Assembly (NCBI GenBank): GCA_035291685.1
Contig: DATDRO010000293.1
Location: forward strand, 1-32,765
Direction of reading: 5' to 3'
Length of the DNA stretch: 32,765 nt
From: Nitrospirota bacterium
GTDB taxonomy: Bacteria > Nitrospirota > UBA9217
Each line of letters begins with the position of its first letter. The stretch's first letter is position 1. The notes under the pieces were generated by a model. That model was not told the origin of the DNA. It was given only the letters and a program-made list of their open reading frames with translations, and did not search any database. Below are positions 6,832-32,765 of the stretch, piece after piece. A program made the translations under genes and the position numbers.

Positions 6832-7179
6832 CAATAATGAATACAGTTGCGACACCCGCAAATAATCTCCCCATGGTTCTCATTTTTCTTCCATTTTTAT
6901 TATGCAATGGATTGCATCCAGGTTTTTTATTAACACATCATCATATTAAAGCAAAACGTTTGCCATTGTATTTTTTCGTTAATATACAACATGTTAGCAT
7001 TTTGCGCGATATGAGAGCATGTCGATTTCTGAACGGGATATCGTTTAATATTCCTATGAGTATGGACCTAACAAATTGAAAAACATAAGTTATCACAGTG
7101 TTGTATTTTGGACTGTCTTAACACGTGTTAGCCTGACAGAAGCCTCGTTTTGCCCTTTCCTCGCACATATGCGGGGTTC

Positions 7180-8268
7180 TTATGGCCTTGATAATCGCAG
7201 CGGGGGGCTGATAAACCTGTTCTTTTCTAGCTGTGCAATGATATGCGCGGACCACCCCGCTACCCTGCCTGCCGCGAATATCGGCGCACAGAGCCCGGTC
7301 GGCACGCCGAGCATATGGAGTATCTGGCCGGCGTAGAGGTCAAGATTGCAGCGCAGACCTTTTTCCCTGAGCATGATCTCCTCTATTTTTTCGCAAAGGG
7401 TATGCCGGCCATTATCACCCATTTGATCTGCAAGCCGCTTACTCAGTTTTTTCATGATCCGTGCTCGTGCATCACCCTGTTTATGAACCCCCTGGCCAAA
7501 TCCCATGATACGTTCTTTTCCCGCGAGTGCGAGCCTGATCCATTCCTCCGCCCGGCCTGTTTCCTTGATCTCCAGCAACCTCCGCAAGGCCTCTTCATTC
7601 GCGGCCCCGTGCTGTTTTCTCTTGAGCGAACCGATCTCGGCGGTGATCGCCGAATGATAATCCGTGAACGAGGATGCGGCAACCCGGGCCGCAAGGCTTG
7701 AGACACCAGACTCGCGTTCTGCATACAGAATGAACACGGCGTCAAGGGCGGTTACCGCATCCTCATCCGGGCCATAACCTGAGAGCATGTAAAGAAAATT
7801 TCGCGCGTGACCAAACTGTCGCATCGGGCTTATCGGCTCCTGGCGCTGCGATATCCGATAGCTCGCTGCGATTACCGTCGGCAGCTTTGCGATCGTTCTT
7901 ACCGCTTTTCTCAGAAGCGCTTTTTTCGAATTGTCCTTTGCCTCCGGGTCAACAATGCCCAGGAACGCCATGGCGGTCTGCAGGACGTCCATCAGGTGCG
8001 CCTTCGGCGATCTCTGCTTGAATATTTCTCCTGATTCAGCCGGAAGCTCCCTGCTTTCTGCAAGGTTATTTGAAAAGTCCTGGAGTTCCCCGGCGTCCGG
8101 GAGTGTCCCGAACAGCAAAAGATAGCAAACCTCTTCATACGTTGATCGTTGCGAGAGCACCTGGATATCATGCCCGCGATATGCAATGTTGCGGTTTTTC
8201 GGCCGTATATCGCTTGTCGATGTTATGGCGGTGCGGTATTCGCAATCAGGATAGTAAAGAACGCTCAT
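7180..8268 (-). CDS. citrate synthase family protein, divergent (active-site motifs substituted)
   Basis: Family landmarks are IAYRGHDI...YEEVCYLLLFGTLP, HGAANEEA (for LHGGANE), ERIMGFGQGVHKQGDAR (for GFGHRVYK..DPR) and NLDLYAG (for NVDFYSG). GAGGA SD lies 7 nt upstream. Confidence 0.85.
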   Translation of the reverse strand: MSVLYYPDCEYRTAITSTSDIRPKNRNIAYRGHDIQVLSQRSTYEEVCYLLLFGTLPDAGELQDFSNNLAESRELPAESGEIFKQRSPKAHLMDVLQTAMAFLGIVDPEAKDNSKKALLRKAVRTIAKLPTVIAASYRISQRQEPISPMRQFGHARNFLYMLSGYGPDEDAVTALDAVFILYAERESGVSSLAARVAASSFTDYHSAITAEIGSLKRKQHGAANEEALRRLLEIKETGRAEEWIRLALAGKERIMGFGQGVHKQGDARARIMKKLSKRLADQMGDNGRHTLCEKIEEIMLREKGLRCNLDLYAGQILHMLGVPTGLCAPIFAAGRVAGWSAHIIAQLEKNRFISPPLRLSRP

Positions 8269-8294
8269 ATCACCATCCTCACATCCAAGGTGAT

Positions 8295-9932
8295 TTATCG
8301 GTTACTCTTCTGTTTTCGGTCAGGACTCGGGCTGATGTCGATTATCTTGGGTGATGACCGGATTGGCGAGGAACTCGCGTCCTTTGCCAGGTCCGCCGTT
8401 CTGTGGGGTCTGTGATGAGAATCACCGCCGCCGGTCAGGGGAGCTAAACGATTTTTTGCCTCCAGCAGAACGCGAGCTTGACGCGCTTCACCTGCGTCCC
8501 GGCGACGCTGCATTTTTTCATCTTCAACGTCTTTATCGGCGGAAAGCACATAGCCGATCTGATTATACCGGCGCAGCGCCGCAGTGTCTTTGCTCAGCGC
8601 GAGCCGCCCAGCCGACATTTCGGCTGCTAAACGCAGAGTACTCTCAAAGTCCCTTTCTATATATTGCTGGTTGGTTATTTCTCCGTCCTGAAGGTATCCG
8701 ATCATTGGCTTTGCCATGATAGACTGATGACGCACAAAGGATGTCAGCATACGCATTGGTATCAAGCGATAACCGCCCGGTCCTTCAAGAACAAGCGGCG
8801 CTACCATGATGTCGTTCCAGATATAATCGGCACGCCGCAAGTAGCGGGTGCGCTCGATGAACGACTGGTAATTCGAACCCGTGGTCGTTCCGTGCAATGA
8901 CACATAGACCGGAACAATCAAGTCATGATAGAGAAACTTCTGGTGAAGCTCCGGCAAACTATCTGCCTTAATAGCGCAGCGATATTCCTCATCACGGCCG
9001 ATATGCGTAGGGCAGATGTCGCAGGCAATACAGCGATTGATGCGTTGACCGGTCAAATTGACCACGGTTGAATGCATGTCGGGCTTGAACCGTGCCACAA
9101 GTCGGTCTACCTCGCGTGCCCCGATATTGTCTGAGTCATGTAATATGAGGAAAAGAGTTTTCGGCTTATCATGCAGCCTGTGTCCGGACCGTATCTGCTT
9201 CAACACCCGCGAAATACGCCGTCCGGTTCCCATGGACGTATCAATGCCGTATGCATCTTTATGCACTGTGCCTACGTCCCCCGCTTGACCGGTTCCTCCG
9301 TATTGGGCAGTCGAGTCACTGTCGTTACCCACGCCCAACAACCCCAGGTTCACCATATCGAACATTTGATACATCAGCGTCGTTTCCTGGCCGCCGTTGC
9401 GTTTTGATCCGACTGAAAGTCCGCCGTAAACACTGCCGCGCATGGCCGATTTCAGCTCGGAATCACCGGCGATGAATTCAATCAGGCTTTCCACAGGGCT
9501 GCTGCGATCACCAAAATAAACCGGGCTCGAGATTATTAAGCCGTCGGCCTCGAGCAATTTGGCGCGAAGGATTTCAGGATTGCGTTGCTGACCAGTAGCA
9601 GTAAAATGTTCGGAAAGGGACAAATGATCTATATCGGCGCCTTCTTTGTGCGCAGCCCACAACGCCGCAGCGAGTAATACCTCGGAATTGCTCAAACCCG
9701 AATCACCGCGGTTCTTCATTAGATTATCATATATTTCAAGAAAGTTTTTCCCTTCTTTTCTGCCCGCCTCGAGGTAGTTCTCGATATGCAATTGCGACTC
9801 GCGTGCAAAATATGCTGTGAGATCTTCCTGCTTGTCTATTTGCTTCAGTTGATCGATCAGGCTGCGATTGCCGGCGCCCCAACGCGCGTTGCGCAAGCTT
9901 GCTGCAATACCGATAATCTTTTGTGATTTCAT
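8295..9932 (-). CDS. two-domain flavodoxin-like / NADPH-dependent FMN-reductase-family protein (tandem domains)
   Basis: The N-terminal domain has IIGIAASLRN...ADGLIISSPVYFGDRSSP...GGLSVGSKRNGGQETT. The second domain has KTLFLILHDSD...CIACDICP...HDLIVPVYVSLHG. Start set at ATG 9932 (MKSQKIIG) with AAGGAG upstream. The gene ends 26 nt from the downstream citrate-synthase-like gene. Confidence 0.7.
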   Translation of the reverse strand: MKSQKIIGIAASLRNARWGAGNRSLIDQLKQIDKQEDLTAYFARESQLHIENYLEAGRKEGKNFLEIYDNLMKNRGDSGLSNSEVLLAAALWAAHKEGADIDHLSLSEHFTATGQQRNPEILRAKLLEADGLIISSPVYFGDRSSPVESLIEFIAGDSELKSAMRGSVYGGLSVGSKRNGGQETTLMYQMFDMVNLGLLGVGNDSDSTAQYGGTGQAGDVGTVHKDAYGIDTSMGTGRRISRVLKQIRSGHRLHDKPKTLFLILHDSDNIGAREVDRLVARFKPDMHSTVVNLTGQRINRCIACDICPTHIGRDEEYRCAIKADSLPELHQKFLYHDLIVPVYVSLHGTTTGSNYQSFIERTRYLRRADYIWNDIMVAPLVLEGPGGYRLIPMRMLTSFVRHQSIMAKPMIGYLQDGEITNQQYIERDFESTLRLAAEMSAGRLALSKDTAALRRYNQIGYVLSADKDVEDEKMQRRRDAGEARQARVLLEAKNRLAPLTGGGDSHHRPHRTADLAKDASSSPIRSSPKIIDISPSPDRKQKSNR

Positions 9933-13609: not shown

Positions 13610-14188
13610 TCAGTGAGGCCTGCCAAAGAGTTCTTCATCCACCATCTCGCAGATAGTGTGGCCGAGCGTGATGTGGGTTTCCTGTATCCTCGGGGTATGC
13701 TTCGTCGCAACAATGAATGAATAATCGGCTGACTGTGCTAATTTTCCACCGGACCCTCCGGTAATAGCGATGATCTTCATGCCGTTCTTTTTCGCCACCT
13801 CAACCGCCTTGAGGACATTGGGCGAGTTGCCGCTCGTGCTTATGGCGATCACGATATCGCCTTCGTGACCGAGCGCGGCAAGCTGCTTCGAAAACACCTG
13901 AGAATAGTCGTAATCATTGCTGATGCTCGTCAATACGGCCGGATCGGTGTTCAGGGCGATCGCAGGGAGCGGCGGGCGCTCCATAAGAAAACGGTTCACG
14001 AATTCAGCCGCAATATGCGAGGCGTCGGTGGCGCTGCCCCCGTTTCCGAAGAGGATCACTTTTTTCCCCTCGCGGAACGCCTGCGCGATCAGTCGGACGA
14101 CATCTACGATCTTTTCCGCGTTTTCCCTGACGAATGCGGTCTTAACGCGAGCGCTCTCTTCGAAAATTTTTATTATACGATCCCGCAT
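13610..14188 (-). CDS. gmhA: SIS-domain phosphoheptose isomerase (GmhA/DiaA family)
   Basis: Motifs LFGNGGSATDASHIAAEF, ALNTD...LTSISNDY.Y..VF and DIVIAISTSGNSPNV. The likely start is MRDRIIKIF (14188). The track start at 14227 adds 13 residues. Confidence 0.85.
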   Translation of the reverse strand: MRDRIIKIFEESARVKTAFVRENAEKIVDVVRLIAQAFREGKKVILFGNGGSATDASHIAAEFVNRFLMERPPLPAIALNTDPAVLTSISNDYDYSQVFSKQLAALGHEGDIVIAISTSGNSPNVLKAVEVAKKNGMKIIAITGGSGGKLAQSADYSFIVATKHTPRIQETHITLGHTICEMVDEELFGRPH

Positions 14189-14258
14189 GTTCTTTCCCTT
14201 TTTTAATGCTCCGGTATTATATTCCAAGCCTCATAAATGTCAAGGCAAAAGGGGATGA

Positions 14259-14348
14259 CGGCGCATAGGGCGGATAGCAGAGGGCAGGGCGCAAAGAGCG
14301 TTCAGTAAAATCCGCGTTCCATATCCTGTGCCCAATGCCCTTTGCCCA
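14259..14348. repeat. G-rich imperfect-palindromic intergenic element (REP-like), related to the one at 19329-19400
   Basis: Shares GCGCATAGGGC (14261-14271 and 19341-19351) plus nearby AGAGGGCA and GCGCAAAG motifs with the second copy. Internally it pairs AGGGCAGGGC-type units with GCCCAATGCCCTTTGCCC. Confidence 0.35.
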
Positions 14349-14349
14349 C

Positions 14350-14394
14350 AAAAAAGAAAGGGCCCCGGTATATACCTAAAATATAATACCGGGG
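14350..14394 (-). terminator. rho-independent terminator downstream of rsmA
   Basis: CCCCGGTAT (14363-14371) pairs with ATACCGGGG (14386-14394). On the minus strand the hairpin is followed by CCCTTTCTTTTTT (complement of 14350-14362). Confidence 0.7.
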
Positions 14395-14528
14395 CTTTCG
14401 GGGGGGTAATCTACAGCCCAGCCCGGTTCCTTCGTGAGAACCCGGCCGGCCCGTAAATTGAAAGGCTTTATGTGAACTAAATTTAACATATTTTTATTGT
14501 TCTGTCAAGTTTTTTAAGTTACAGCTAA

Positions 14529-15362
14529 TTAACTTGTTTTTACAGCATGTTGACCCTGCAAAAAATCAGCCAGCGCCCCAAAATCGCCAATGCTCAGGGT
14601 CTCTGCCCGCCGGCCGAGGTCAATGCCTGTCGCGGACAGGACCTGGTCTGTCCGTTCCTTCGGAATACCGAGTTGGCGGATGGCATTTCGGAGTGTCTTC
14701 CGGCGCTGGGAGAAGGCGGCCTTTACGAGGAGAAAAAAGAAATGCTCGTCCCGCACCACAACAGCAGGCGCGTCCCGGACCCGGAGAGTGATGACTGCTG
14801 ATTCGATCTCGGGCTGGGGCGTGAAGGCGCCCGGAGGCACGATGAATTCCATCCTCGCTTCGGTATAGAACTGTACCAGCACCGAGAGATAGCCATACTC
14901 CTTGCCGCCGGGCGGCGAGGCGATGCGTTCCGCTACTTCTTTCTGGAGCATGAGGGTGAGCGATGAAAACTTTTCCCGGACTTGGAGAAGCTTCCGTATG
15001 ATGGGCGTTGAAATATAGTAGGGAAGATTGGCAACGACTTTCCATTTGCCGGGCAAGGTCTCGTACTGATACTCGAGCGCATCGGCATGGACGATCTCTC
15101 TGTTCGCCGTTCCCGAAAATTGTTCCCGAAGGCGGGGAATAAGCCGCTTGTCAAACTCGATAGCAATGACCCTTTTTGCCCTGGCCGCGAGTTCCCGCGT
15201 GAGATGGCCGAGTCCCGGGCCGATCTCGAGCACCTGATCGTCCGGATTGATCCGGGCAGCCTCAGCTATTTTTTTCAGATAATACGGCTCTTTTAAAAAA
15301 TGCTGACCAAGCGATTTTTTTGGCCGTATAGGTCCGCCCTCGTCCATCGAATCCTCTCTCAA
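14529..15362 (-). CDS. rsmA: 16S rRNA (adenine1518/1519-N6)-dimethyltransferase RsmA/KsgA
   Basis: KKSLGQHFL, the SAM-binding motif VLEIGPGLGHLTREL, and NLPYYISTPII. An alternative start lies at 15347. Confidence 0.93.
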   Translation of the reverse strand: MREDSMDEGGPIRPKKSLGQHFLKEPYYLKKIAEAARINPDDQVLEIGPGLGHLTRELAARAKRVIAIEFDKRLIPRLREQFSGTANREIVHADALEYQYETLPGKWKVVANLPYYISTPIIRKLLQVREKFSSLTLMLQKEVAERIASPPGGKEYGYLSVLVQFYTEARMEFIVPPGAFTPQPEIESAVITLRVRDAPAVVVRDEHFFFLLVKAAFSQRRKTLRNAIRQLGIPKERTDQVLSATGIDLGRRAETLSIGDFGALADFLQGQHAVKTS

Positions 15363-15368
15363 CCGTTT

Positions 15369-16205
15369 CTATACGCGCAGTCGCGGGTCCAGCCTGTCCC
15401 GCAAGAAGTCGCCTAACACATTAAAACTGATCACGGTCACGCTGATCGCGAGGCCCGGGAAGATCACCATCCACGGAGCGGAACCAATGTAGGCGCGATT
15501 GAGACTGATCATCGAGCCCCACGTGGGGGTCGGGGGCTGCACGCCGAGGCCGAGGAACGATAGGGCGGCCTCGAGCAGGATGAAACCGCCGACGCGGAGA
15601 CTGCCGGCCACGAGAAGAAGAGGGAGTGCGTTCGGAAGAATGTGTTTATAAAGAATTCTCGCGGATGAAGCGCCGAGCGCACGGGATGCCTCGACATAGG
15701 TCTGCTCTTTGAGAGAGAGAGCAACGCCGCGAACGAGCCGGGCGAAGCCGGCCCAGCCAACAAGCGTGATGGCGAGCATTGCCGAGGTGAGTCCCGGCTG
15801 CATGACCGCGCTGATGCCTATGGCAAGCAAAAGACTCGGAAAGGCAAGGAAGATGTCGAACATTTGTGAGAGAAATATATCAACTTTTCCGCCGAAATAG
15901 CCGGCGCAAAGTCCTAAAACGATGCCGATGCAGAGAGAGAGCGCGGATGCGGCAATGCCGACCGTGAGTGATACCCGGGCGCCGGCGACGATGCGCGAGA
16001 GGATGTCCCTGCCTTTGCTGTCCGTGCCGAAAGGATGGGCTGCGCTCGGCGGCTGTCTGAGACTGTCCAGGTCCATGTCGCGCGGCCCATAGGGCACAAG
16101 AAAGGGCCCTATGATCGCGGTGAGCACGAGCAGCACGATGAGCAGAGCAGCAATCGCGGCCGGCGTGGACGCGGTAAGGTCTTTATAAAAAAAAGTCTTC
16201 AACAT
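15369..16205 (-). CDS. ABC transporter permease, OppC/DppC family
   Basis: N-terminal segment ...PFGTDSKGRDILSRIVAGARVSL and a BPD_transp_1-type core (ASRALGASSARILYKHILPNALPLL). Confidence 0.9.
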   Translation of the reverse strand: MLKTFFYKDLTASTPAAIAALLIVLLVLTAIIGPFLVPYGPRDMDLDSLRQPPSAAHPFGTDSKGRDILSRIVAGARVSLTVGIAASALSLCIGIVLGLCAGYFGGKVDIFLSQMFDIFLAFPSLLLAIGISAVMQPGLTSAMLAITLVGWAGFARLVRGVALSLKEQTYVEASRALGASSARILYKHILPNALPLLLVAGSLRVGGFILLEAALSFLGLGVQPPTPTWGSMISLNRAYIGSAPWMVIFPGLAISVTVISFNVLGDFLRDRLDPRLRV

Positions 16206-16406
16206 GATTTTTATGATGCGGGGTAACCACCCCGGTCGTCCGCTCGCTCTGTCGATTAACCTGCTGATAATCCAACTTATAACTGATGACTAGTAACTAT
16301 CAACAGGTATGAGTTACCGGTTGTAAGTTATAGGTCCGCAACGCGGTGCACGCTTACACCACGCCAACGGCGTGGTCGCGGCCGGCCTGTGCGCCTGAGC
16401 GGTTAC

Positions 16407-16430
16407 GATGCAGGATGCACGATACAGGAT
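16407..16430. repeat. short tandem heptamer repeat inside the inter-permease spacer
   Basis: GATGCAG GATGCAC GATACAG GAT, about 3.4 copies, read directly. Confidence 0.5.
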
Positions 16431-16498
16431 TTAATCACGCGCCTTTCTTCATACATCGGGAATCGCATTATCAGGGTCAATCCGCTTCGAAAAAAGTT

Positions 16499-17428
16499 CT
16501 ACTTTTTCAACCGTACGCGCGGGTCGATAGCGTGGTACGAAAGATCCACGAGAAGGTTCATGGAAACGAAGACCACCGCGCCGAACAGGACCACTCCCAT
16601 GATGACGGGGTAATCTCTTTTGAGGATCCCGTCAAGCGCGTAGCGGCCGAGACCGTCCCAGCCGAAGATCGTTTCGGTAAGGACCGCTCCGTTCAGGTAC
16701 GAACCGAGGTCAAGGCCGATGAGCGTAATGACGGGGATAAGAGAGTTTTTCAGGGCATGCTTCAGAACCACACCGGTCTCGGAAAGACCTTTGGCCCGGG
16801 CCGCCGCGATATACGGCTGCGAGAGCGACTCGATCATGGACGCGCGGGTCACACGCGCGATGTAGGAAAGGGAGAACGTACCGAGCGTCACCGCCGGCAG
16901 AATGATGTAGACCAGACTGCCGTTACCCATGCCTGAGGGAGGGAGCCAGCGGAGGTGCAGCGAGAACAGGAGCATCAGCGTGAGCCCGAGCCAGAAGATC
17001 GGCACCGATATGCCGCCCACGGAAATAAGCGTTACGATCCTGTCCTGCCATGCCCCGCGCTTTACCGCCGCGTACACGCCGAGGGCAATGCCTCCTGTTG
17101 AGGCGAACAGTATGGCTGCCAGGGCGAGCCTGAGCGTGTTCGGGAATTTTTCGATGAGGTCGTCCGCTATTTTTCTGTTCGTGTAGTTCGAGCGGCCGAG
17201 CTCTCCCGTGGAGATCAACTTTAAGTAGCCGATGTACTGGAGCGGCAACGGCCGGTCCTGGCCGAGCTCGGCCCGAATCCTGGCTATGGTCTCCGGATTT
17301 GCCCGATCACCGGCCATCCCCTGAACAGGGTCTCCGGGCAAGGCCTGCATCAGAATAAACGTGATGAGCGTGATGCCGAGGAGGGTGGGGATGAAGAGTA
17401 AAATCCTTTTTACGATATAGCGCGCCAT
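16499..17428 (-). CDS. ABC transporter permease, OppB/DppB family
   Basis: N-terminus MARYIVKRILLFIPTLLGITLITFILMQALPGDP is the family signature, with an EAA-like core AARAKGLSETGVVLKHALKNSLIPVIT. Start set at ATG 17428. Confidence 0.9.
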   Translation of the reverse strand: MARYIVKRILLFIPTLLGITLITFILMQALPGDPVQGMAGDRANPETIARIRAELGQDRPLPLQYIGYLKLISTGELGRSNYTNRKIADDLIEKFPNTLRLALAAILFASTGGIALGVYAAVKRGAWQDRIVTLISVGGISVPIFWLGLTLMLLFSLHLRWLPPSGMGNGSLVYIILPAVTLGTFSLSYIARVTRASMIESLSQPYIAAARAKGLSETGVVLKHALKNSLIPVITLIGLDLGSYLNGAVLTETIFGWDGLGRYALDGILKRDYPVIMGVVLFGAVVFVSMNLLVDLSYHAIDPRVRLKK

Positions 17429-26991: not shown

Positions 26992-27149
26992 GTAATACCC
27001 CTTTCTTTGGTCACGGGCCGCGGAACGTTATGAATCGAAAATGATGGAAAAAGCTTCTCCGGTTCGCGTCCCCGTTCGGTCGCTATTCTACCACAAACGG
27101 AACGCAATTTTCAAAGTGAGTTTTTTTAAAAGTCGTGTATAATAAGGGC

Positions 27150-27965
27150 ATGGTCGATATTCTCACCCATCAAGCGGAGTCCTACAGTCTTGAAACCTTC
27201 CACTGCGGGAACTGCGATCGGGATTTCCAGGCCAAGGTGATCACGTGGATCGACGTCTCCCGGGCGCCGCAGGCGCGGAAGGCGCTGCTCCGCTGGGAGT
27301 TCAATAATATTGAATGCGCCCACTGCGGGTGCCGCCACTTTGCCGGGGCCCCGTTTTTCTATGAGGATTTTGAAGAGGGGCTCCTTGTCGCCGTGTTCCC
27401 CCGGATACCGGAAAACCGCGCGAAGATCGAGGCGACCATAAAGGAAAAGTACGGCTACTACCCGGTGCTCGAGTATTTTTATGATATGACGCAGATATGG
27501 ATGCTGCTTTACTTCCAGGAACATTACAAGGCGAACAAAAATCTGCGCGCCCTCTCGAGGATCGGGAAAGGGGAGGACCGGCTGCGCAGGTTCCTTCAGT
27601 TCCTCAAAGAGGACCCGATGATGATCGACATACGAGAGAAGCTTACGGAATGTTTTTTTGGAGACGCCTCGGACGATGAGCTTATGGATATCCTGAACCA
27701 GGCAGTCTATACGCTGGAGGGAATGCTCCCCTGGCCGAAGGACAGGAGGTGCCTGTGCGGTGCGGACCTTTCGAAAGAGTTCAAATGCTGCGGCAAGCAG
27801 GTGGACATCGACAGCCACGACCATCTGCTCTCCCAACACTACATCATTTACTGTCCTCTCTGCAAAGAGTCGCTCGCGGGGGCATCGTGCGAGGCCTGCG
27901 GCCGGGTTTACACATGGAAGCTCGGCGCCGTGGAATCGTATGCAACAGCGAGTCAGGAGCGCTGA
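27150..27965 (+). CDS. CpXC domain-containing zinc-ribbon protein
   Basis: CGNC...(38 aa)...CAHCG with the intervening WIDVSRAP...ALL pattern typical of CpXC. Extra C-terminal Cys pairs are present (CLCG, CCG, CPLC, CEAC). The start is taken at ATG 27150 and is uncertain. Confidence 0.75.
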   Translation: MVDILTHQAESYSLETFHCGNCDRDFQAKVITWIDVSRAPQARKALLRWEFNNIECAHCGCRHFAGAPFFYEDFEEGLLVAVFPRIPENRAKIEATIKEKYGYYPVLEYFYDMTQIWMLLYFQEHYKANKNLRALSRIGKGEDRLRRFLQFLKEDPMMIDIREKLTECFFGDASDDELMDILNQAVYTLEGMLPWPKDRRCLCGADLSKEFKCCGKQVDIDSHDHLLSQHYIIYCPLCKESLAGASCEACGRVYTWKLGAVESYATASQER

Positions 27966-28154
27966 TGCCTGTGCGGTCGTCCCCGAAGGTCAATCCGTAC
28001 CCAGAGCGCGGCCCGGCACCGGTATGCGAATAAATACAACAGGTTGGTCTCTCCTTGAATAACCTCCTGCATTCTTTCCCGCTCTGTCCTTTTATGTTGT
28101 ACCGTGATTATGACATGAATTAACGTCACAAATGGAGGGATTCTACTCCAATAC

Positions 28155-28170
28155 GGGGTGATTTCACCCC
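28155..28170. promoter_or_regulatory. perfect inverted repeat, candidate activator (bEBP) site upstream of the sigma54 promoter
   Basis: GGGGTGA-tt-TCACCCC, centred about 70 nt upstream of the -24 element. Confidence 0.3.
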
Positions 28171-28231
28171 ACTATCATGACGCAGCTTCCCCCCTGTTTT
28201 TCAACTCATTATTAGATTGAGGAAAATTTTC

Positions 28232-28247
28232 TGGCACTCTGATTGCA
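28232..28247 (+). promoter_or_regulatory. sigma54 (RpoN) -24/-12 promoter
   Basis: cTGGCACtctgaTTGCAt compared with the consensus YTGGCACG-N4-TTGCW. All invariant positions and the spacing match. It lies about 300 nt upstream of ATG 28545. Confidence 0.6.
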
Positions 28248-28544
28248 TATTCTTATTCCGGCTAATAGTCTGCCGATGCTTCAGCATAATTATTATGAGC
28301 ACTCTTGTTGCCGAGGAATCCGCTTGACGCATTGTGCATTTTGTGATAATTTCGTGCCGTAATCAGCAGTCTGTTGAATTCATATCCTCTTGCCGGGTCC
28401 ACGATAAACAACGCATGGCAGGCATGACGGCAGGAGCGTGGATTGGGCGGGCAGCGTTTTAAAGGCCCTCGATGATCAGAGTTGATCCGGACGCTGATTT
28501 CCCCGCTTTTACCCAGCCTACATTTTTTGAACAACTAAGGAATC

Positions 28545-30632
28545 ATGGGTGCACATTCGGCTCCATTCCAGTCCGACGATATATCTCTACGCAAGGCAAG
28601 AGGGATTGTGCTTAACGCAAACAAGGCAGGCTATCTGCGAGACCTTTTCTCGAGGGAGAAATGGAAGGGTCAGTTAACGGCCCTTTCCGACACGACCGGG
28701 TTCACGCTCAGCCTTTATTCCGGAGAGGGGGGGGCCATCTTTTCCACGGCAGAACGGAACCCGCCGTGCCGGGGCCTGCTCTCATCTCCGTATTTTAAAT
28801 CACAATGCGAAACGTACTGCCGCGCCCCGCTGACGGACGTCATTCAGCAGGGAAAGCCGAAAATTTTCAAATGTTATGCGAAGATCGTGAGTTTCGCCCT
28901 GCCCATTGAATATATGAACGAGAAGGCGGCCATTCTGGGGCAGGGGTCCTTCGCCAACTACCAGGATTTTCGAGAATTCACCAGTTACCTGAGCGCCTCC
29001 GAGATGCAAGATCTTTCAGTAACAGCCCCGCTCAGTTTTACGAACGTCCGGCAGGCAAAGAATGCCTGCAGCCTCGTGGACAGCTCGTTCAGTCAGCTCC
29101 TGAAAAACACCCAGGAAACCATTACCCTGCAACAGAAGATAGACAGCCTGAAAAACCTTATCGGCAGATGGGGCGTTGATGCCCAGGACGAATTAGAGAC
29201 TTCCTACGAACACATGGCGGCCAATCTGCTCTCGCTGCTTGATGTTCACTCGATCACCATCCTTTCGCTCGACAAACTGCGGGGGGTCTATACACACCAT
29301 TACAGCCTGAAGAAGAACGGCGTCGCAACGGAGCTGTTCACGATCAGCGAGCAGGACAACATTGTTGCAGAGTTCAACAGGGGCAAACCGTTCATTGCCT
29401 CTTCGGAAGCTGTTCTCGCCTCCCGGCCGGATTTCCCGGCCGGCGTCAAGACCTTTTATTTATTTCCCATCATGGTCAACAAAAAGGTGGAGAGCATCCT
29501 CGGAATCTTTGACAATGTGCTCAAAGAGAGCGATATCTCTGTTGTCACCGCGTTCTGCAAGCAGACGGCGCTTTCCATAGAGAACCAGCGGCTGCATCGG
29601 GACCTCTACGATAAATTCGACCGGTTCGCCGCTGTTTCGGAGCTGACACAGTCAATAACCTCGATCCTGGATTATGAGACGCTGCTCAAGACGATCCTTG
29701 AAAAATCCGCCGAGCTGCTCAAGGCCGAACAGGGCTCTCTCATGCTTATCGACTATGAGACCAACGGGCTGCTCCTTGAGGCGAAGAAGGGCATGACCAA
29801 CGGCAGAACGGAAAAACTGAGAATTCGAAAGGGCGAGGGGATAGCCGGAAGGGTAGCGGAACTCGGGGAACCGTTCCTCGTCGAAAATGTCGAGATCGAC
29901 CCGAGGATCAAGCAAAAGAACCGGCTTCACTATAAGACATTGTCCTGTGTCAGCGTGCCGCTCAAGATAGAAGAACGCGTTATCGGCGTGCTTAACCTGT
30001 CGGACAAGATATCCGGAGAGGTTTTTGATGAAGAGGACCTGAAGCTCATTCAATCCTTTGCAACCCATGCCGCCATTGTTATGGAGAGAAATGTTCTGTA
30101 CAGTCAGACGGAGAAGCTTAAAAAGCTGTCGATAACGGATTCTCTCACCGGTTTGCTCAATCGAAGATACTTTCACGAGAGGCTGGAGGAAGAGGTCTCT
30201 CGTTCCGGGAGGCATGGCCGCAACCTGTCCCTTTTGATGCTCGATATAGACGGTTTTAAATATTATAATGACACCTTCGGGCACCGCATCGGCGACAAGG
30301 CGCTTAAGGTCATCTCCGATATCATATTAAATTCTGTGCGGTCAATTGATATCGTGGCCCGGTACGGGGGCGATGAATTCATGGTGATCCTGCCCGAAAC
30401 GGACAAGGCGCTGGCGATCCATATCGCCGAACGGCTGCGGACCGATGTGGCGAAGATCGTCCTGCCCACAAACAGCATGCCGGATGCGCCGCCGGTTGCC
30501 ATTACCCTGAGCATCGGGATGGTGTGCTATCCCGAGCACGGGGGAACGGCCGAGCTGCTCCTTGAGCATGTCGACAAGGCGCTCTACCTTGCGAAAAAGA
30601 GAGGGAAGAACAGGATCGAGGAGTTCTCCTAG
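28545..30632 (+). CDS. diguanylate cyclase with PocR-like, GAF, GAF and GGDEF domains
   Basis: C-terminal GGDEF domain (DSLTGLLNRRYF...RYGGDEFMVILPE) with I-site RSID five residues before GGDEF. A canonical GAF domain (LLKAEQGSLMLID...GEGIAGRVAELGEPFLVENV...VIGVLNLSDK) follows a more degenerate GAF. The N-terminal Cys-containing domain resembles PocR (tentative). Confidence 0.9.
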   Translation: MGAHSAPFQSDDISLRKARGIVLNANKAGYLRDLFSREKWKGQLTALSDTTGFTLSLYSGEGGAIFSTAERNPPCRGLLSSPYFKSQCETYCRAPLTDVIQQGKPKIFKCYAKIVSFALPIEYMNEKAAILGQGSFANYQDFREFTSYLSASEMQDLSVTAPLSFTNVRQAKNACSLVDSSFSQLLKNTQETITLQQKIDSLKNLIGRWGVDAQDELETSYEHMAANLLSLLDVHSITILSLDKLRGVYTHHYSLKKNGVATELFTISEQDNIVAEFNRGKPFIASSEAVLASRPDFPAGVKTFYLFPIMVNKKVESILGIFDNVLKESDISVVTAFCKQTALSIENQRLHRDLYDKFDRFAAVSELTQSITSILDYETLLKTILEKSAELLKAEQGSLMLIDYETNGLLLEAKKGMTNGRTEKLRIRKGEGIAGRVAELGEPFLVENVEIDPRIKQKNRLHYKTLSCVSVPLKIEERVIGVLNLSDKISGEVFDEEDLKLIQSFATHAAIVMERNVLYSQTEKLKKLSITDSLTGLLNRRYFHERLEEEVSRSGRHGRNLSLLMLDIDGFKYYNDTFGHRIGDKALKVISDIILNSVRSIDIVARYGGDEFMVILPETDKALAIHIAERLRTDVAKIVLPTNSMPDAPPVAITLSIGMVCYPEHGGTAELLLEHVDKALYLAKKRGKNRIEEFS

Positions 30633-30633
30633 C

Positions 30634-32316
30634 ATGTCATTCGGTACGCTCAACGAAAAAGATTTTTTCGGCAGAGGGGAAGAGCTGTCTGACCTGTACC
30701 GCCGGGCCCTCCAGGCTGAACAGGGCGCCGGACAGAGCGTCTTTCTGTCGGGCACCAGGGGCGTCGGCAAGACGGAACTCCTTAAACAGTTCTTCAGCCA
30801 TCTGTTCTGGAAACAGGACCGGGTGGTCCCTTTCTACTACTCGGTCAATAACGCGCTCCTTTCCGCGGAAGATTTTTCGAGGGACTATGTAACGCGTTAC
30901 ATCTGCCAGAGACTCGCTTTTGAAAAAAAGGAGCAGGCCCTTTTACATCTCGACGGATTATCGATCGAAGGGCTGTCTTCGCTCGTGGAAGGAAGCAGGG
31001 CCGCGTGGGCGCGCGATATCCTTGACCGATATGCCCGGAACTCCGGCAAGCCCGTCGATTCACTCCGCGTCGCGCTCGGCGCGCCGCACCAATCAAGCCT
31101 CTCGAGCGGAAATCCCGCGGTGGTCCTGATAGACGAGTTTCAAAAGCTGAAAAATCTCCATATCAGCGGCGCCGTTGACCCTCAACTGGTCTCGCTGTTC
31201 GAGGTCCCGCTCTCGTTCAAAGGGGCGCTGCACGTGATCACGGGAAATGAGGCCGAGATCGAGGAGATGCCCGTCTCAGGAGGTCTCTCGCGGGTAACGG
31301 TTCCTCCGCTCGGGTCCGAGGATGCCGCTCAGCAGTTTCTCTCGCTGCTCCGCGCATTCGGGATATCCGTGAATGCCGTGCCGGACGCGGTTGTTCAGCA
31401 TCTGGGGGGAAATCCGTTCTACCTGCGGTGCCTGGCGACGGCCGCGGGACTCAAGAAAAGCCGCGAAGAAAAAGAGTTCTGGCTTGCCTACCTCCAGGAA
31501 ATCACGAACGGGAATATGTATCTCTATTGGTCATCGGTCCTGAAGAACTTTTTTCCCGATATGGGCCTGAGGAGAAACGTTGTCGAAATAACGTACAAGA
31601 TGTTCCATACCCGGGAGTCATTGACCCAGGAGAAAATCACCGAGGCCTTTCCCGCGGGCGGTATGCATGCCGAGGCGATCGTTCGCGCCCTTCACCGCAC
31701 GGGTTTCATCCAGGGCGAGTTCGGGGTTTTCAGGGCGTCCGAGGACAAGGTGGTAACGGATTTTATCAACTGCCTGTACATGAGAGTGATCCTCGGGATG
31801 GCCCCGTATGACATCGAGAAGGGGTTCCTTGAACAGCAGTCGGGAGAGACGACCGAGAGAAGGACGGCGTTCGAAATGGTCCTGCCGATGACCAGAGAGG
31901 CGGAGCTTGTAGCCGCGCGGTGTCTCGAACAGATCGGCAAGAACCTGCGGATCCATGAAGAAGCGATCGGCCAGCTTCAGATAGCGGTCATCGAGGCCTG
32001 TATCAATGCCCTTGAGCACAGCAAGGGGGGGGAGAAGAAGATCTATTTGAGCTTTGACGTTGCGGAAGACCGCATGGAGGTTTCGATTGAAAGCTCCGGA
32101 CGGGAATTCGTGGTACAGGAGACGGGGGAACCCTTCATCGGGAAGAAACTCAGGGAAGATTTCGGGAGGGGATGGGGCGTAAAGCTCATGAAGCGTTTTA
32201 CGGATTCCGTACGATTCGAAAAGACCGGCCGCGGGACAAAAGTGATCCTGGTGAAGAACCTTCCGAAAACGGAAACGGCTGGTGTTTATAAGGAGGGCGG
32301 GGCAAACGGTGAGTAA
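30634..32316 (+). CDS. fusion protein: AAA+ ATPase (Arch_ATPase/AAA_16-like) plus RsbW/SpoIIAB-type serine kinase (HATPase_c_2) domain
   Basis: The N-terminus has FFGRGEELSDL...GTRGVGKTELL (Walker A, nt 30751-30774) and VVLIDEFQKL (Walker B). The C-terminus has N-box IAVIEACINALEHS, IESSGREF and GRGWGVKLMKRFTD. The ATG lies 1 nt after the cyclase stop, with GAGGAG upstream. Confidence 0.85.
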   Translation: MSFGTLNEKDFFGRGEELSDLYRRALQAEQGAGQSVFLSGTRGVGKTELLKQFFSHLFWKQDRVVPFYYSVNNALLSAEDFSRDYVTRYICQRLAFEKKEQALLHLDGLSIEGLSSLVEGSRAAWARDILDRYARNSGKPVDSLRVALGAPHQSSLSSGNPAVVLIDEFQKLKNLHISGAVDPQLVSLFEVPLSFKGALHVITGNEAEIEEMPVSGGLSRVTVPPLGSEDAAQQFLSLLRAFGISVNAVPDAVVQHLGGNPFYLRCLATAAGLKKSREEKEFWLAYLQEITNGNMYLYWSSVLKNFFPDMGLRRNVVEITYKMFHTRESLTQEKITEAFPAGGMHAEAIVRALHRTGFIQGEFGVFRASEDKVVTDFINCLYMRVILGMAPYDIEKGFLEQQSGETTERRTAFEMVLPMTREAELVAARCLEQIGKNLRIHEEAIGQLQIAVIEACINALEHSKGGEKKIYLSFDVAEDRMEVSIESSGREFVVQETGEPFIGKKLREDFGRGWGVKLMKRFTDSVRFEKTGRGTKVILVKNLPKTETAGVYKEGGANGE

Positions 32317-32662
32317 TTTTTCTCTTTCTTTCAAGACGGATCAGGATGTCGTGGTCATGGCCCCGAAGGGATATGTCAACGACCTCGGGGCCGTGAGCCT
32401 CGAACAGGCAAGCGAGCAGGTCCTCGACCATGGGCTCAAAAAACTTGTTGTAAACTTTTCGGATATGCAGTATATAAACAGCATCGGGGCCTCCGTTTTC
32501 ATCGGTATCGTCCAAAGGACCATTGAGAACGAAGGGCAGCTCTGTTTTACCAATATGAAAAAGGTCCATCAAGACGTCTTTGAGATGCTGGGCATTACAA
32601 AACACGTAAGGGTCTTTAAGGACGAACGGGACGCCCTCAGTTTTTTGAATGAGAATGGTTAA
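32309..32662 (+). CDS. STAS domain anti-sigma-factor antagonist (SpoIIAA/RsbV family)
   Basis: VVVMAPKGYVN......LVVNFSDMQYINSIGASVFIGI...FTNMKKVHQDVFEMLGITKHVRVF, with the conserved phosphorylatable Ser context (INSIG). The GTG start at 32309 overlaps the upstream stop by 8 nt. AAGGAGG lies at 32290-32296. Confidence 0.85.
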   Translation: MSNFSLSFKTDQDVVVMAPKGYVNDLGAVSLEQASEQVLDHGLKKLVVNFSDMQYINSIGASVFIGIVQRTIENEGQLCFTNMKKVHQDVFEMLGITKHVRVFKDERDALSFLNENG

Positions 32663-32765
32663 CTGCTCAGGTCAGCCGTTCGCTCAGTCGCTTAGCGTGC
32701 TATAAGTCCGTGAAATTCGAGAGGGTCGGAGTTTTTGTCCATAGCGCTTACATTGGTAAAGCATT

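Follow-up and report, generated by a model that had tools for sequence, protein, structure and literature searches.

A protein family joining an AAA+ module to an RsbW-like domain, and its conserved gene cassette as a candidate partner switch for cyclic di-GMP turnover

What might a protein control that carries an AAA+ nucleotide switch at one end and the fold of an anti-sigma-type serine kinase at the other? The question is raised by gene T (positions 30634–32316, forward strand), which lies towards the end of contig DATDRO010000293.1 of a Nitrospirota bacterium (assembly GCA_035291685.1). This contig of 32,765 nucleotides (nt) was analysed as a whole and is referred to as the window. T encodes a protein of 560 amino acids (aa) that comprises an AAA+ domain, a lid, a winged helix and an RsbW-like GHKL domain. 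Its gene belongs to a cassette with the order U (a diguanylate cyclase), T, S (a STAS protein) and H (a GAF-HD-GYP phosphodiesterase). As the answer we favour, with a probability of roughly 55%, T would be the hub of this self-contained four-gene cassette, an AAA+-gated partner-switch module that controls the turnover of cyclic di-GMP (c-di-GMP). Judged from sequence, the probable role of T is thus to set the level of c-di-GMP, and not to control a sigma factor.

T represents a real and conserved protein family. The reading frame extends from the ATG at 30634 to the TAA at 32314–32316 and is preceded by a Shine-Dalgarno sequence (GAGGAG, 30618–30623) located 10 nt 5' of the ATG. An upstream TTG at 30562 was rejected as start codon, because all full-length homologues begin at a methionine that matches the ATG at 30634. 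A gene-fusion artefact was rejected as well, since the same full-length open reading frame (ORF) is found on hundreds of independent contigs. Among the best 120 homologues listed from a 90%-clustered database, identity to T ranged from 51 to 91% and length from 544 to 563 aa (one fragment excepted). These proteins share the Pfam pair of T, and their database names are only ‘ATP-binding protein’ or ‘RsbW/anti-sigma regulatory factor’. A family profile, searched against 1.84 billion representatives, matched at least 239 clusters (50% identity) at a cut-off of E≤1e-30. The family occurs in two forms, a short one of ~550–555 aa in Nitrospirota and a long one of ~740 aa (range 700–850) in Thermodesulfobacteriota, from which the long-form proteins examined here derive. 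The genome loci with T are nearly all metagenome-assembled genomes (MAGs) labelled Nitrospirota or Thermodesulfovibrionia. No NCBIfam model spans full-length T, and full-text literature searches yielded no description of either the AAA+/RsbW-like fusion or the four-gene cassette. A previous interpretation made from the letters of the window alone (the sequence-only reading) had regarded the fusion as unusual. Indeed, the combination of the AAA+ module with an RsbW-like domain, and its cassette, appear to be undescribed in curated families and papers, although all components are of known kinds; T is not a singleton, however, but a member of a large conserved family. In some MAGs, two paralogous copies of the whole cassette were detected (L023 and L045 in one MAG, L011 and L028 in another), with T proteins that are ~50–56% identical to the T of the window.

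The N-terminal ~400 residues of T are, as modelled, one complete ATPase_2 module, with no separate unrelated middle segment. Residues 1–225 (30634–31308, forward strand) form an AAA+ nucleotide-binding domain of the ATPase_2/AAA_16 type: Pfam AAA_16 (PF13191) matched residues 11–173 with 41.8 bits (cut-off 32.6) and ATPase_2 (PF01637) residues 11–205 with 36.4 bits (cut-off 33.2). Walker A is located at G40–T47 (nt 30751–30774, including K46) and Walker B at V163–F169 (VVLIDEF, nt 31120–31140). Among the homologues, the GxxGxGKT and hhhhD motifs are invariant, as are residues G43, G45, K46, T47, E48 and D167, and R/K221 occupies a box-VII-like position. Residue 168, the second acidic position of Walker B, varies between E, D, N and G, a variation more easily reconciled with a binding-driven switch than with a motor of fast hydrolysis.

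An AlphaFold2 model of T, built from 67 homologues (mean predicted local distance difference test score 84, predicted TM-score 0.68), supported this layout. It comprises a Rossmann-type core up to residue ~225, followed by a helical lid of residues 226–309 (31309–31560, forward strand) with a conserved GGNP motif at residues 258–261, with an invariant G259 and a near-invariant N260 and P261. Residues 310–370 (31561–31743, forward strand) are predicted to form the winged helix, with helices at 310–326, 332–337 and 342–356 and a beta-hairpin at 359–368; its conserved GEFG motif (residues 361–364) contains the invariant E362 and G364. Two linker helices (372–402, within the segment 371–410 at 31744–31863, forward strand) then lead to an alpha/beta sandwich of residues 411–542. 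When the model was compared with the PDB using Foldseek, the top two matches were 2qen (P. abyssi PABY2304) and 2fna (S. solfataricus SSO1545), which aligned with T residues 1 to ~410 over 409–416 columns with target-normalised TM-scores of 0.62–0.63. The sequence-only reading had proposed an Arch_ATPase-like AAA+ N-terminus and a winged helix in the middle of the protein. Pfam and fold comparison bear out the former, and the three helices and hairpin between residues 310 and 368 were found where the latter had been placed.

The same reading had likened the N-terminus to STAND or ORC-like switches, which holds in part. Orc1/Cdc6 structures and the modules of NLRs and Apaf-1 were also matched, but they rank after 2qen and 2fna; T does resemble NLRs and Apaf-1 in fold, though less closely than it resembles the ATPase_2 structures. 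With Pfam NACHT and NB-ARC matches below threshold only, T does not qualify as a STAND protein. These matches bear on the rival view of T as a STAND-like NTPase that functions in conflict or anti-phage defence and has the GHKL domain as its effector. Here, Foldseek matches to the modules of nucleotide-binding, helical and winged-helix domains in NLR, Apaf-1 and Avs3, together with the weak NACHT and NB-ARC matches, stand against several observations: PADLOC gave no significant match (best E=3e-4, no qualifying stretch), T has no repeat sensor at its C-terminus, its surroundings on the chromosome are stable and of a housekeeping kind, and the cassette is vertically conserved, neither patchy nor located on an island. 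We consider a defence function very improbable.

The C-terminal residues 411–545 (31864–32268, forward strand) constitute a GHKL domain of the RsbW/SpoIIAB type. HATPase_c_2 (PF13581) matched residues 427–541 with 59 bits (cut-off 27.4, E=6.4e-16), and the RsbW structure 6m36 was matched at 1e-6 with the single sequence and at 1.7e-11 with the family profile. By sequence, RsbW and SpoIIAB were the only relatives of this domain in the PDB. Foldseek aligned the domain with the RsbW chains of 6m36/6m37 at target-normalised TM-scores of 0.82–0.91 (root-mean-square deviation 1.8–3.7 Å), so that the C-terminus does have the GHKL fold; 1l0o, 1til and 8ih8 were matched in addition, with SpoIIAB and UsfX among the matches. 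T is not an orthologue of RsbW or SpoIIAB, since the NCBIfam equivalog models for both match it far below their cut-offs. The N-box (E454–H462 within EACINALEHS, nt 31993–32019, forward strand) contains an invariant E454 and an N458 and H462 that are invariant or nearly so. In the G2 box (G511–G515, GRGWG, nt 32164–32178, forward strand), G513-W514-G515 is invariant in 17 sequences and nearly invariant in 67. All motifs quoted in the sequence-only reading (Walker A with K46, VVLIDEF, EACINALEHS and GRGWG) are present and conserved in the homologues. Its further remark that RsbW-type kinases normally stand alone needs qualification: RsbW-like domains fused to other modules are already known from HsbR, SypE and Rv1364c, and it is the fusion to an AAA+ module that is undescribed.

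Which proteins T works with is indicated by its gene neighbourhood. Gene U (28545–30632, forward strand) encodes a PocR-GAF-GGDEF diguanylate cyclase of 695 aa with Pfam matches to all three domains; its active-site GGDEF and its RxxD I-site are conserved in 53 orthologues. The TAG stop codon of U (30630–30632) ends 1 nt before the ATG of T, the same spacing is found in most loci, and U is translationally coupled to T. Gene S (32357–32662, forward strand) starts ~40 nt downstream of T and encodes a single-domain STAS protein (Pfam STAS) of 101 aa, its start being fixed by orthologues of 101 aa. NCBIfam models for anti-sigma-factor antagonists match S below their cut-offs. The putative phospho-acceptor Ser42 (nt 32480–32482, forward strand) lies in the motif I-N-[S/T]-I-G at the position of SpoIIAA Ser58; all 64 orthologues have Ser or Thr there. 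H combines a GAF-like N-terminal domain with an HD_5/HD-GYP domain in which the HHExxDGxGYP motif is intact; its gene starts ~85 nt beyond the end of the window, judged from contigs with identical T (L085–L090).

The order U-T-S-H was found on these contigs, in relatives whose T is 91%, 86% or 52% identical, and around the long-form T of Thermodesulfobacteriota, that is, in a second phylum. Of 66 genome loci with complete flanks, 37 have this order and a further 15 have T-S-H without U. Where the flank is long enough, U immediately precedes T in 51 of 72 loci, and H accompanies S in 61 of the 64 loci that contain S. The surroundings of the cassette are stable and of a housekeeping kind (gyrA, ftsH, lpxC and an opp-type ABC transporter). 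Clustering of the flanking ORFs of ~84 loci revealed that only U, T, S, H and antisense shadows recur, with no conserved sigma factor, and neither a PP2C nor a sigma domain was detected among the scanned genes of the window.

These neighbourhoods speak to the classical function of such domains, in which T would be an anti-sigma factor whose GHKL domain sequesters an alternative sigma factor encoded at another site, the STAS protein its anti-anti-sigma factor, and the c-di-GMP genes co-regulated without being direct targets. RsbW, SpoIIAB and UsfX, the closest relatives of the T C-terminal domain in sequence and structure, are in line with this explanation, and a gene of the sigma-70 family is located 1.3 kb upstream of U at one locus (L002). 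Across ~80 loci, however, no sigma gene recurs near the cassette, and in the window the upstream region holds gyrA and a gene for a CpXC-domain protein instead. In addition, the association with GGDEF and HD-GYP enzymes is tight and conserved in two phyla. An anti-sigma role of this kind therefore seems unlikely to us.

The link between T and the STAS protein is further supported by the way in which both vary. In all 67 loci where the N-box and G2 box of T are intact, a STAS gene is located directly downstream; in all 12 loci with decayed kinase motifs, which belong to at least two clades, it is absent (Fisher p-value 2e-14, with loci that are not phylogenetically independent). In one deep clade, U and T are followed by a convergent housekeeping gene, without STAS and HD-GYP genes. 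Here the N-box, the G1-like motif and the G2 box of T are decayed or deleted, and HATPase_c_2 went undetected by Pfam. Two Nitrospira-type loci without STAS gene have a degenerate G2 box. Walker A is retained in every clade, including those with decayed motifs.

The clade with U and T only (L050, L053, L064, L067, L069, L071, L072, L074, L075 and L077, with T at ~7001–8630 in most) deserves a comment of its own. Its T proteins keep the length of the C-terminal domain and have lost N-box, G1 and G2, which gives them the look of a natural ‘dead kinase’. Since such a T is still paired with a GGDEF protein, the sequences hint that T may also interact with the cyclase independently of STAS.

While the sequences show the domain architecture, the conserved motifs, the synteny of the cassette in two phyla and the coupling of intact kinase motifs to a STAS gene, we infer from them a kinase activity of T, its gating by the AAA+ module, the enzyme on which the STAS protein acts and the sign of the regulation. 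The AAA+/lid/winged-helix module would serve as an ATP-dependent conformational or oligomerisation switch and, given its fusion to the GHKL domain and the behaviour of Orc1/Cdc6 and STAND proteins, would gate the kinase. The GHKL domain would pair with the STAS protein and most likely phosphorylate its Ser42, or at least bind it in a nucleotide-dependent manner. The state of the STAS protein would in turn set the activity of the co-encoded enzymes. Of these enzymes, the GAF-HD-GYP phosphodiesterase shows the tightest linkage, because its gene accompanies the STAS gene in nearly all cases. Taken together, the cassette suggests a local circuit in which synthesis and breakdown of c-di-GMP are governed by protein-protein switching.

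Several points weigh against this interpretation, the first of which concerns the nucleotide pocket. The G1-box Asp of GHKL ATPases contacts the N6 of adenine. In alignments to both hidden Markov models, the family reads S-I-E-S-x-G where RsbW has V-A-D-E-G and SpoIIAB V-R-D-E-G; S487 of the variant G1 box (E486-S487-S488-G489, nt 32089–32100, forward strand) aligns with the canonical Asp and is preceded by an invariant E486. Among 150 listed representatives of the wider family, the position holds Ser in short Nitrospirota forms, Asn in most long forms and Asp in a few. Judging from these alignments, it is non-canonical and restricted to a small polar residue. A Ser or Asn in place of the canonical Asp may have altered ATP binding or kinase activity, or abolished it. 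For the sequence-only reading, which had assigned an anti-sigma-type Ser kinase to the C-terminus, this means that fold and profile hold, while the word ‘kinase’ goes further than a protein with S487 at this position warrants; we regard kinase activity as plausible on sequence grounds. Secondly, a PP2C phosphatase that could reset the STAS protein is conserved neither within the cassette nor next to it (flanks of ~84 loci, the locus only). Thirdly, the coupling of kinase motifs and STAS presence reflects few loss events, at least two. Fourthly, some lineages have T and S only (the two Dissulfurispiraceae loci L057 and L058) or U and T only, for which reason T and the STAS protein form the core, with the GGDEF and HD-GYP enzymes as modular accessories. 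Finally, we found no characterised member of the T family in the literature, and no experiment on any member.

The serious rival builds on the G1 substitution and on the missing phosphatase. It holds that T is a pseudokinase or a sensor of an alternative nucleotide, its GHKL domain being no longer capable of canonical ATP recognition. The domain would be either a stoichiometric binder of the STAS protein or a pocket for GTP or c-di-GMP and would transfer no phosphate, which would leave the AAA+ domain as the sole ATPase. The canonical Asp is replaced nearly superfamily-wide, and the genes around T all concern GTP or c-di-GMP. UsfX of M. tuberculosis, which is reportedly a non-phosphorylating RsbW-like anti-sigma factor, may be counted in its favour as well. 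Yet N-box (E454, N458) and RGWG are near-invariant where STAS is present and decay upon its loss; in the wider family, too, both are nearly unchanged despite the variation at G1. The STAS acceptor alternates between Ser and Thr only, which is the pattern expected of a phosphorylated residue, and the G1 position does not drift freely but keeps a polar, hydrogen-bonding residue. We judge the pseudokinase or alternative sensor to be rather unlikely. A cassette that toggles c-di-GMP without any phosphatase is an improbable further option: the GHKL pocket, having Ser or Asn where the Asp would contact adenine, would have shifted its nucleotide specificity and would read or use GTP or c-di-GMP, and the AAA+/winged-helix switch would gate the hand-over of the STAS protein to the HD-GYP or the GGDEF enzyme. 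If true, the partner switch would take its input from the very messenger pool that it controls.

Some features of the cassette stand apart from this argument. The PocR domain of U contains four cysteines (C75, C88, C92 and C110, within residues ~75–110) that are conserved across orthologues, a pattern that suggests a metal, Fe-S or redox-sensing input. In the distant relative L002, a cluster for polysaccharide export (13929–17365; Poly_export/SLBB, Wzz/GNVR and ParA-like) follows ~2.7 kb downstream of the cassette. Polysaccharide export is a typical output of c-di-GMP, but its link to the cassette in L002 is not conserved at other loci. Long antisense ORFs overlap T (31618–32334, reverse strand, 238 aa) and U (29652–30284, reverse strand); in relatives they recur solely as shadows of the sense genes, with no evidence that they are genes. 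A scan of positions 27000–32765 with Rfam gave no match, and a promoter and terminator scan gave no excess over chance.

What sets the long-form homologues apart is an insert of ~190 aa, which follows the winged-helix module at the site of the linker helices and precedes the GHKL domain. Examples are encoded in L083 (2418–4640) and L084 (1782–4016), and others are P0153, P0269, P0270 and many of P0137–P0262. Pfam gave no match for the insert, and Foldseek with a long-form model did not identify it, as GHKL and AAA+ matches dominated the result. Its prediction as an alpha/beta domain is good (strands within 462–509 and 538–566 in P0270), and it contains conserved LPQ and W...GF motifs. The predicted topology recalls the PD-(D/E)xK fold, which is only an impression.

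The window ends within the spacer between S and H, 103 nt past the stop codon of S. These 103 nt (32663–32765, forward strand) are the first part of a spacer that measures ~186 nt in this lineage, and include the left arm of an inverted repeat at 32665–32679; save for a 2-nt indel, they equal L085 from position 8030 onward. The spacer carries a 147-nt unit (L085 8032–8178) flanked by the perfect 15-nt inverted repeats GCTCAGGTCAGCCGT and ACGGCTGACCTGAGC. This unit is absent from L001, a 91%-identical relative in which H starts 2 nt after the stop codon of S, and may be an insertion resembling a miniature inverted-repeat transposable element or a long-stem RNA. As the contig ends inside the unit, a repeat-induced assembly break is suggested. 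Homology to L001 stops at the stop codon of S, but an absence or rearrangement of H in this genome was rejected, because the contigs with identical T continue the spacer into H.

If T indeed gates a partner switch, its input would differ in principle from those known, namely PP2C phosphatases, stressosomes and phosphorelays, in that an AAA+/ORC-like switch is fused to the kinase itself. The fusion also provides a handle on the ATPase_2 or ‘archaeal ATPase’ family, as it ties an AAA+ module to a readable output, the state of a STAS protein or the level of c-di-GMP. With a cyclase and an HD-GYP phosphodiesterase, the cassette places both kinds of enzyme around one kinase/STAS pair, an arrangement conserved in Nitrospirota and Thermodesulfobacteriota. 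In the literature searched, we found no description of an HD-GYP enzyme regulated by a STAS protein.

Each part of T and of its cassette has counterparts among known systems. Like T, the ATPase_2 structures 2qen and 2fna consist of an AAA+ domain, a lid and a winged helix, and T shares their Walker A and B motifs and a GGxP-type lid motif; their function is unassigned and they end after the winged helix, whereas T continues into the GHKL domain. Orc1/Cdc6 and STAND switches have the same three-part layout of nucleotide-binding domain, lid and winged helix. T differs from STAND proteins in that Pfam detected no repeat-type sensor (TPR, WD40 or LRR), and set against ATPase_2, Orc1/Cdc6 and STAND proteins alike, we found no evidence of DNA binding for T. 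With RsbW, SpoIIAB and RsbT it has in common the fold of its C-terminal 135 aa, the N-box EACxNAxxH and the G2 box. In contrast to these proteins, the domain of T sits behind an AAA+/winged-helix module of 410 aa, has Ser in place of the G1 Asp and is encoded in an operon without sigma factor and PP2C phosphatase. As with RsbV and SpoIIAA, a single-domain STAS gene with a Ser/Thr acceptor is located directly downstream of T, but its motif is N-[S/T]-I-G and not D-S-S-G. The adjacent genes T and S thus match the kinase and STAS genes of a canonical partner switch, which in addition comprises a PP2C/SpoIIE phosphatase and a sigma factor that the cassette lacks.

On the side of c-di-GMP, H shares the GAF-HD-GYP architecture described for PmGH-type phosphodiesterases (10.1101/2021.11.05.467447); that survey makes no reference to anti-sigma or STAS proteins, the term ‘anti-sigma’ being absent from its text. 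Regulation of diguanylate cyclases by kinase/STAS partner switches is established for SiaABCD, HsbA-HsbD and BgrV-BgrR, where the phosphorylation state of the STAS protein decides on binding and activation of the cyclase (PMC8457831, PMC5085249). The cassette resembles SiaABCD, HptB-HsbR-HsbA-HsbD and BgrSTUWV-BgrR in that a kinase and a STAS-type protein are encoded beside a GGDEF enzyme, a linkage that in our case is genomic only. Those systems have a PP2C phosphatase (SiaA, HsbR and BgrU, respectively), whereas none is linked to the cassette of T, of which an HD-GYP phosphodiesterase is also a part. And while their kinases are small or fused to REC or PP2C domains, the candidate kinase described here is fused to an AAA+ module.

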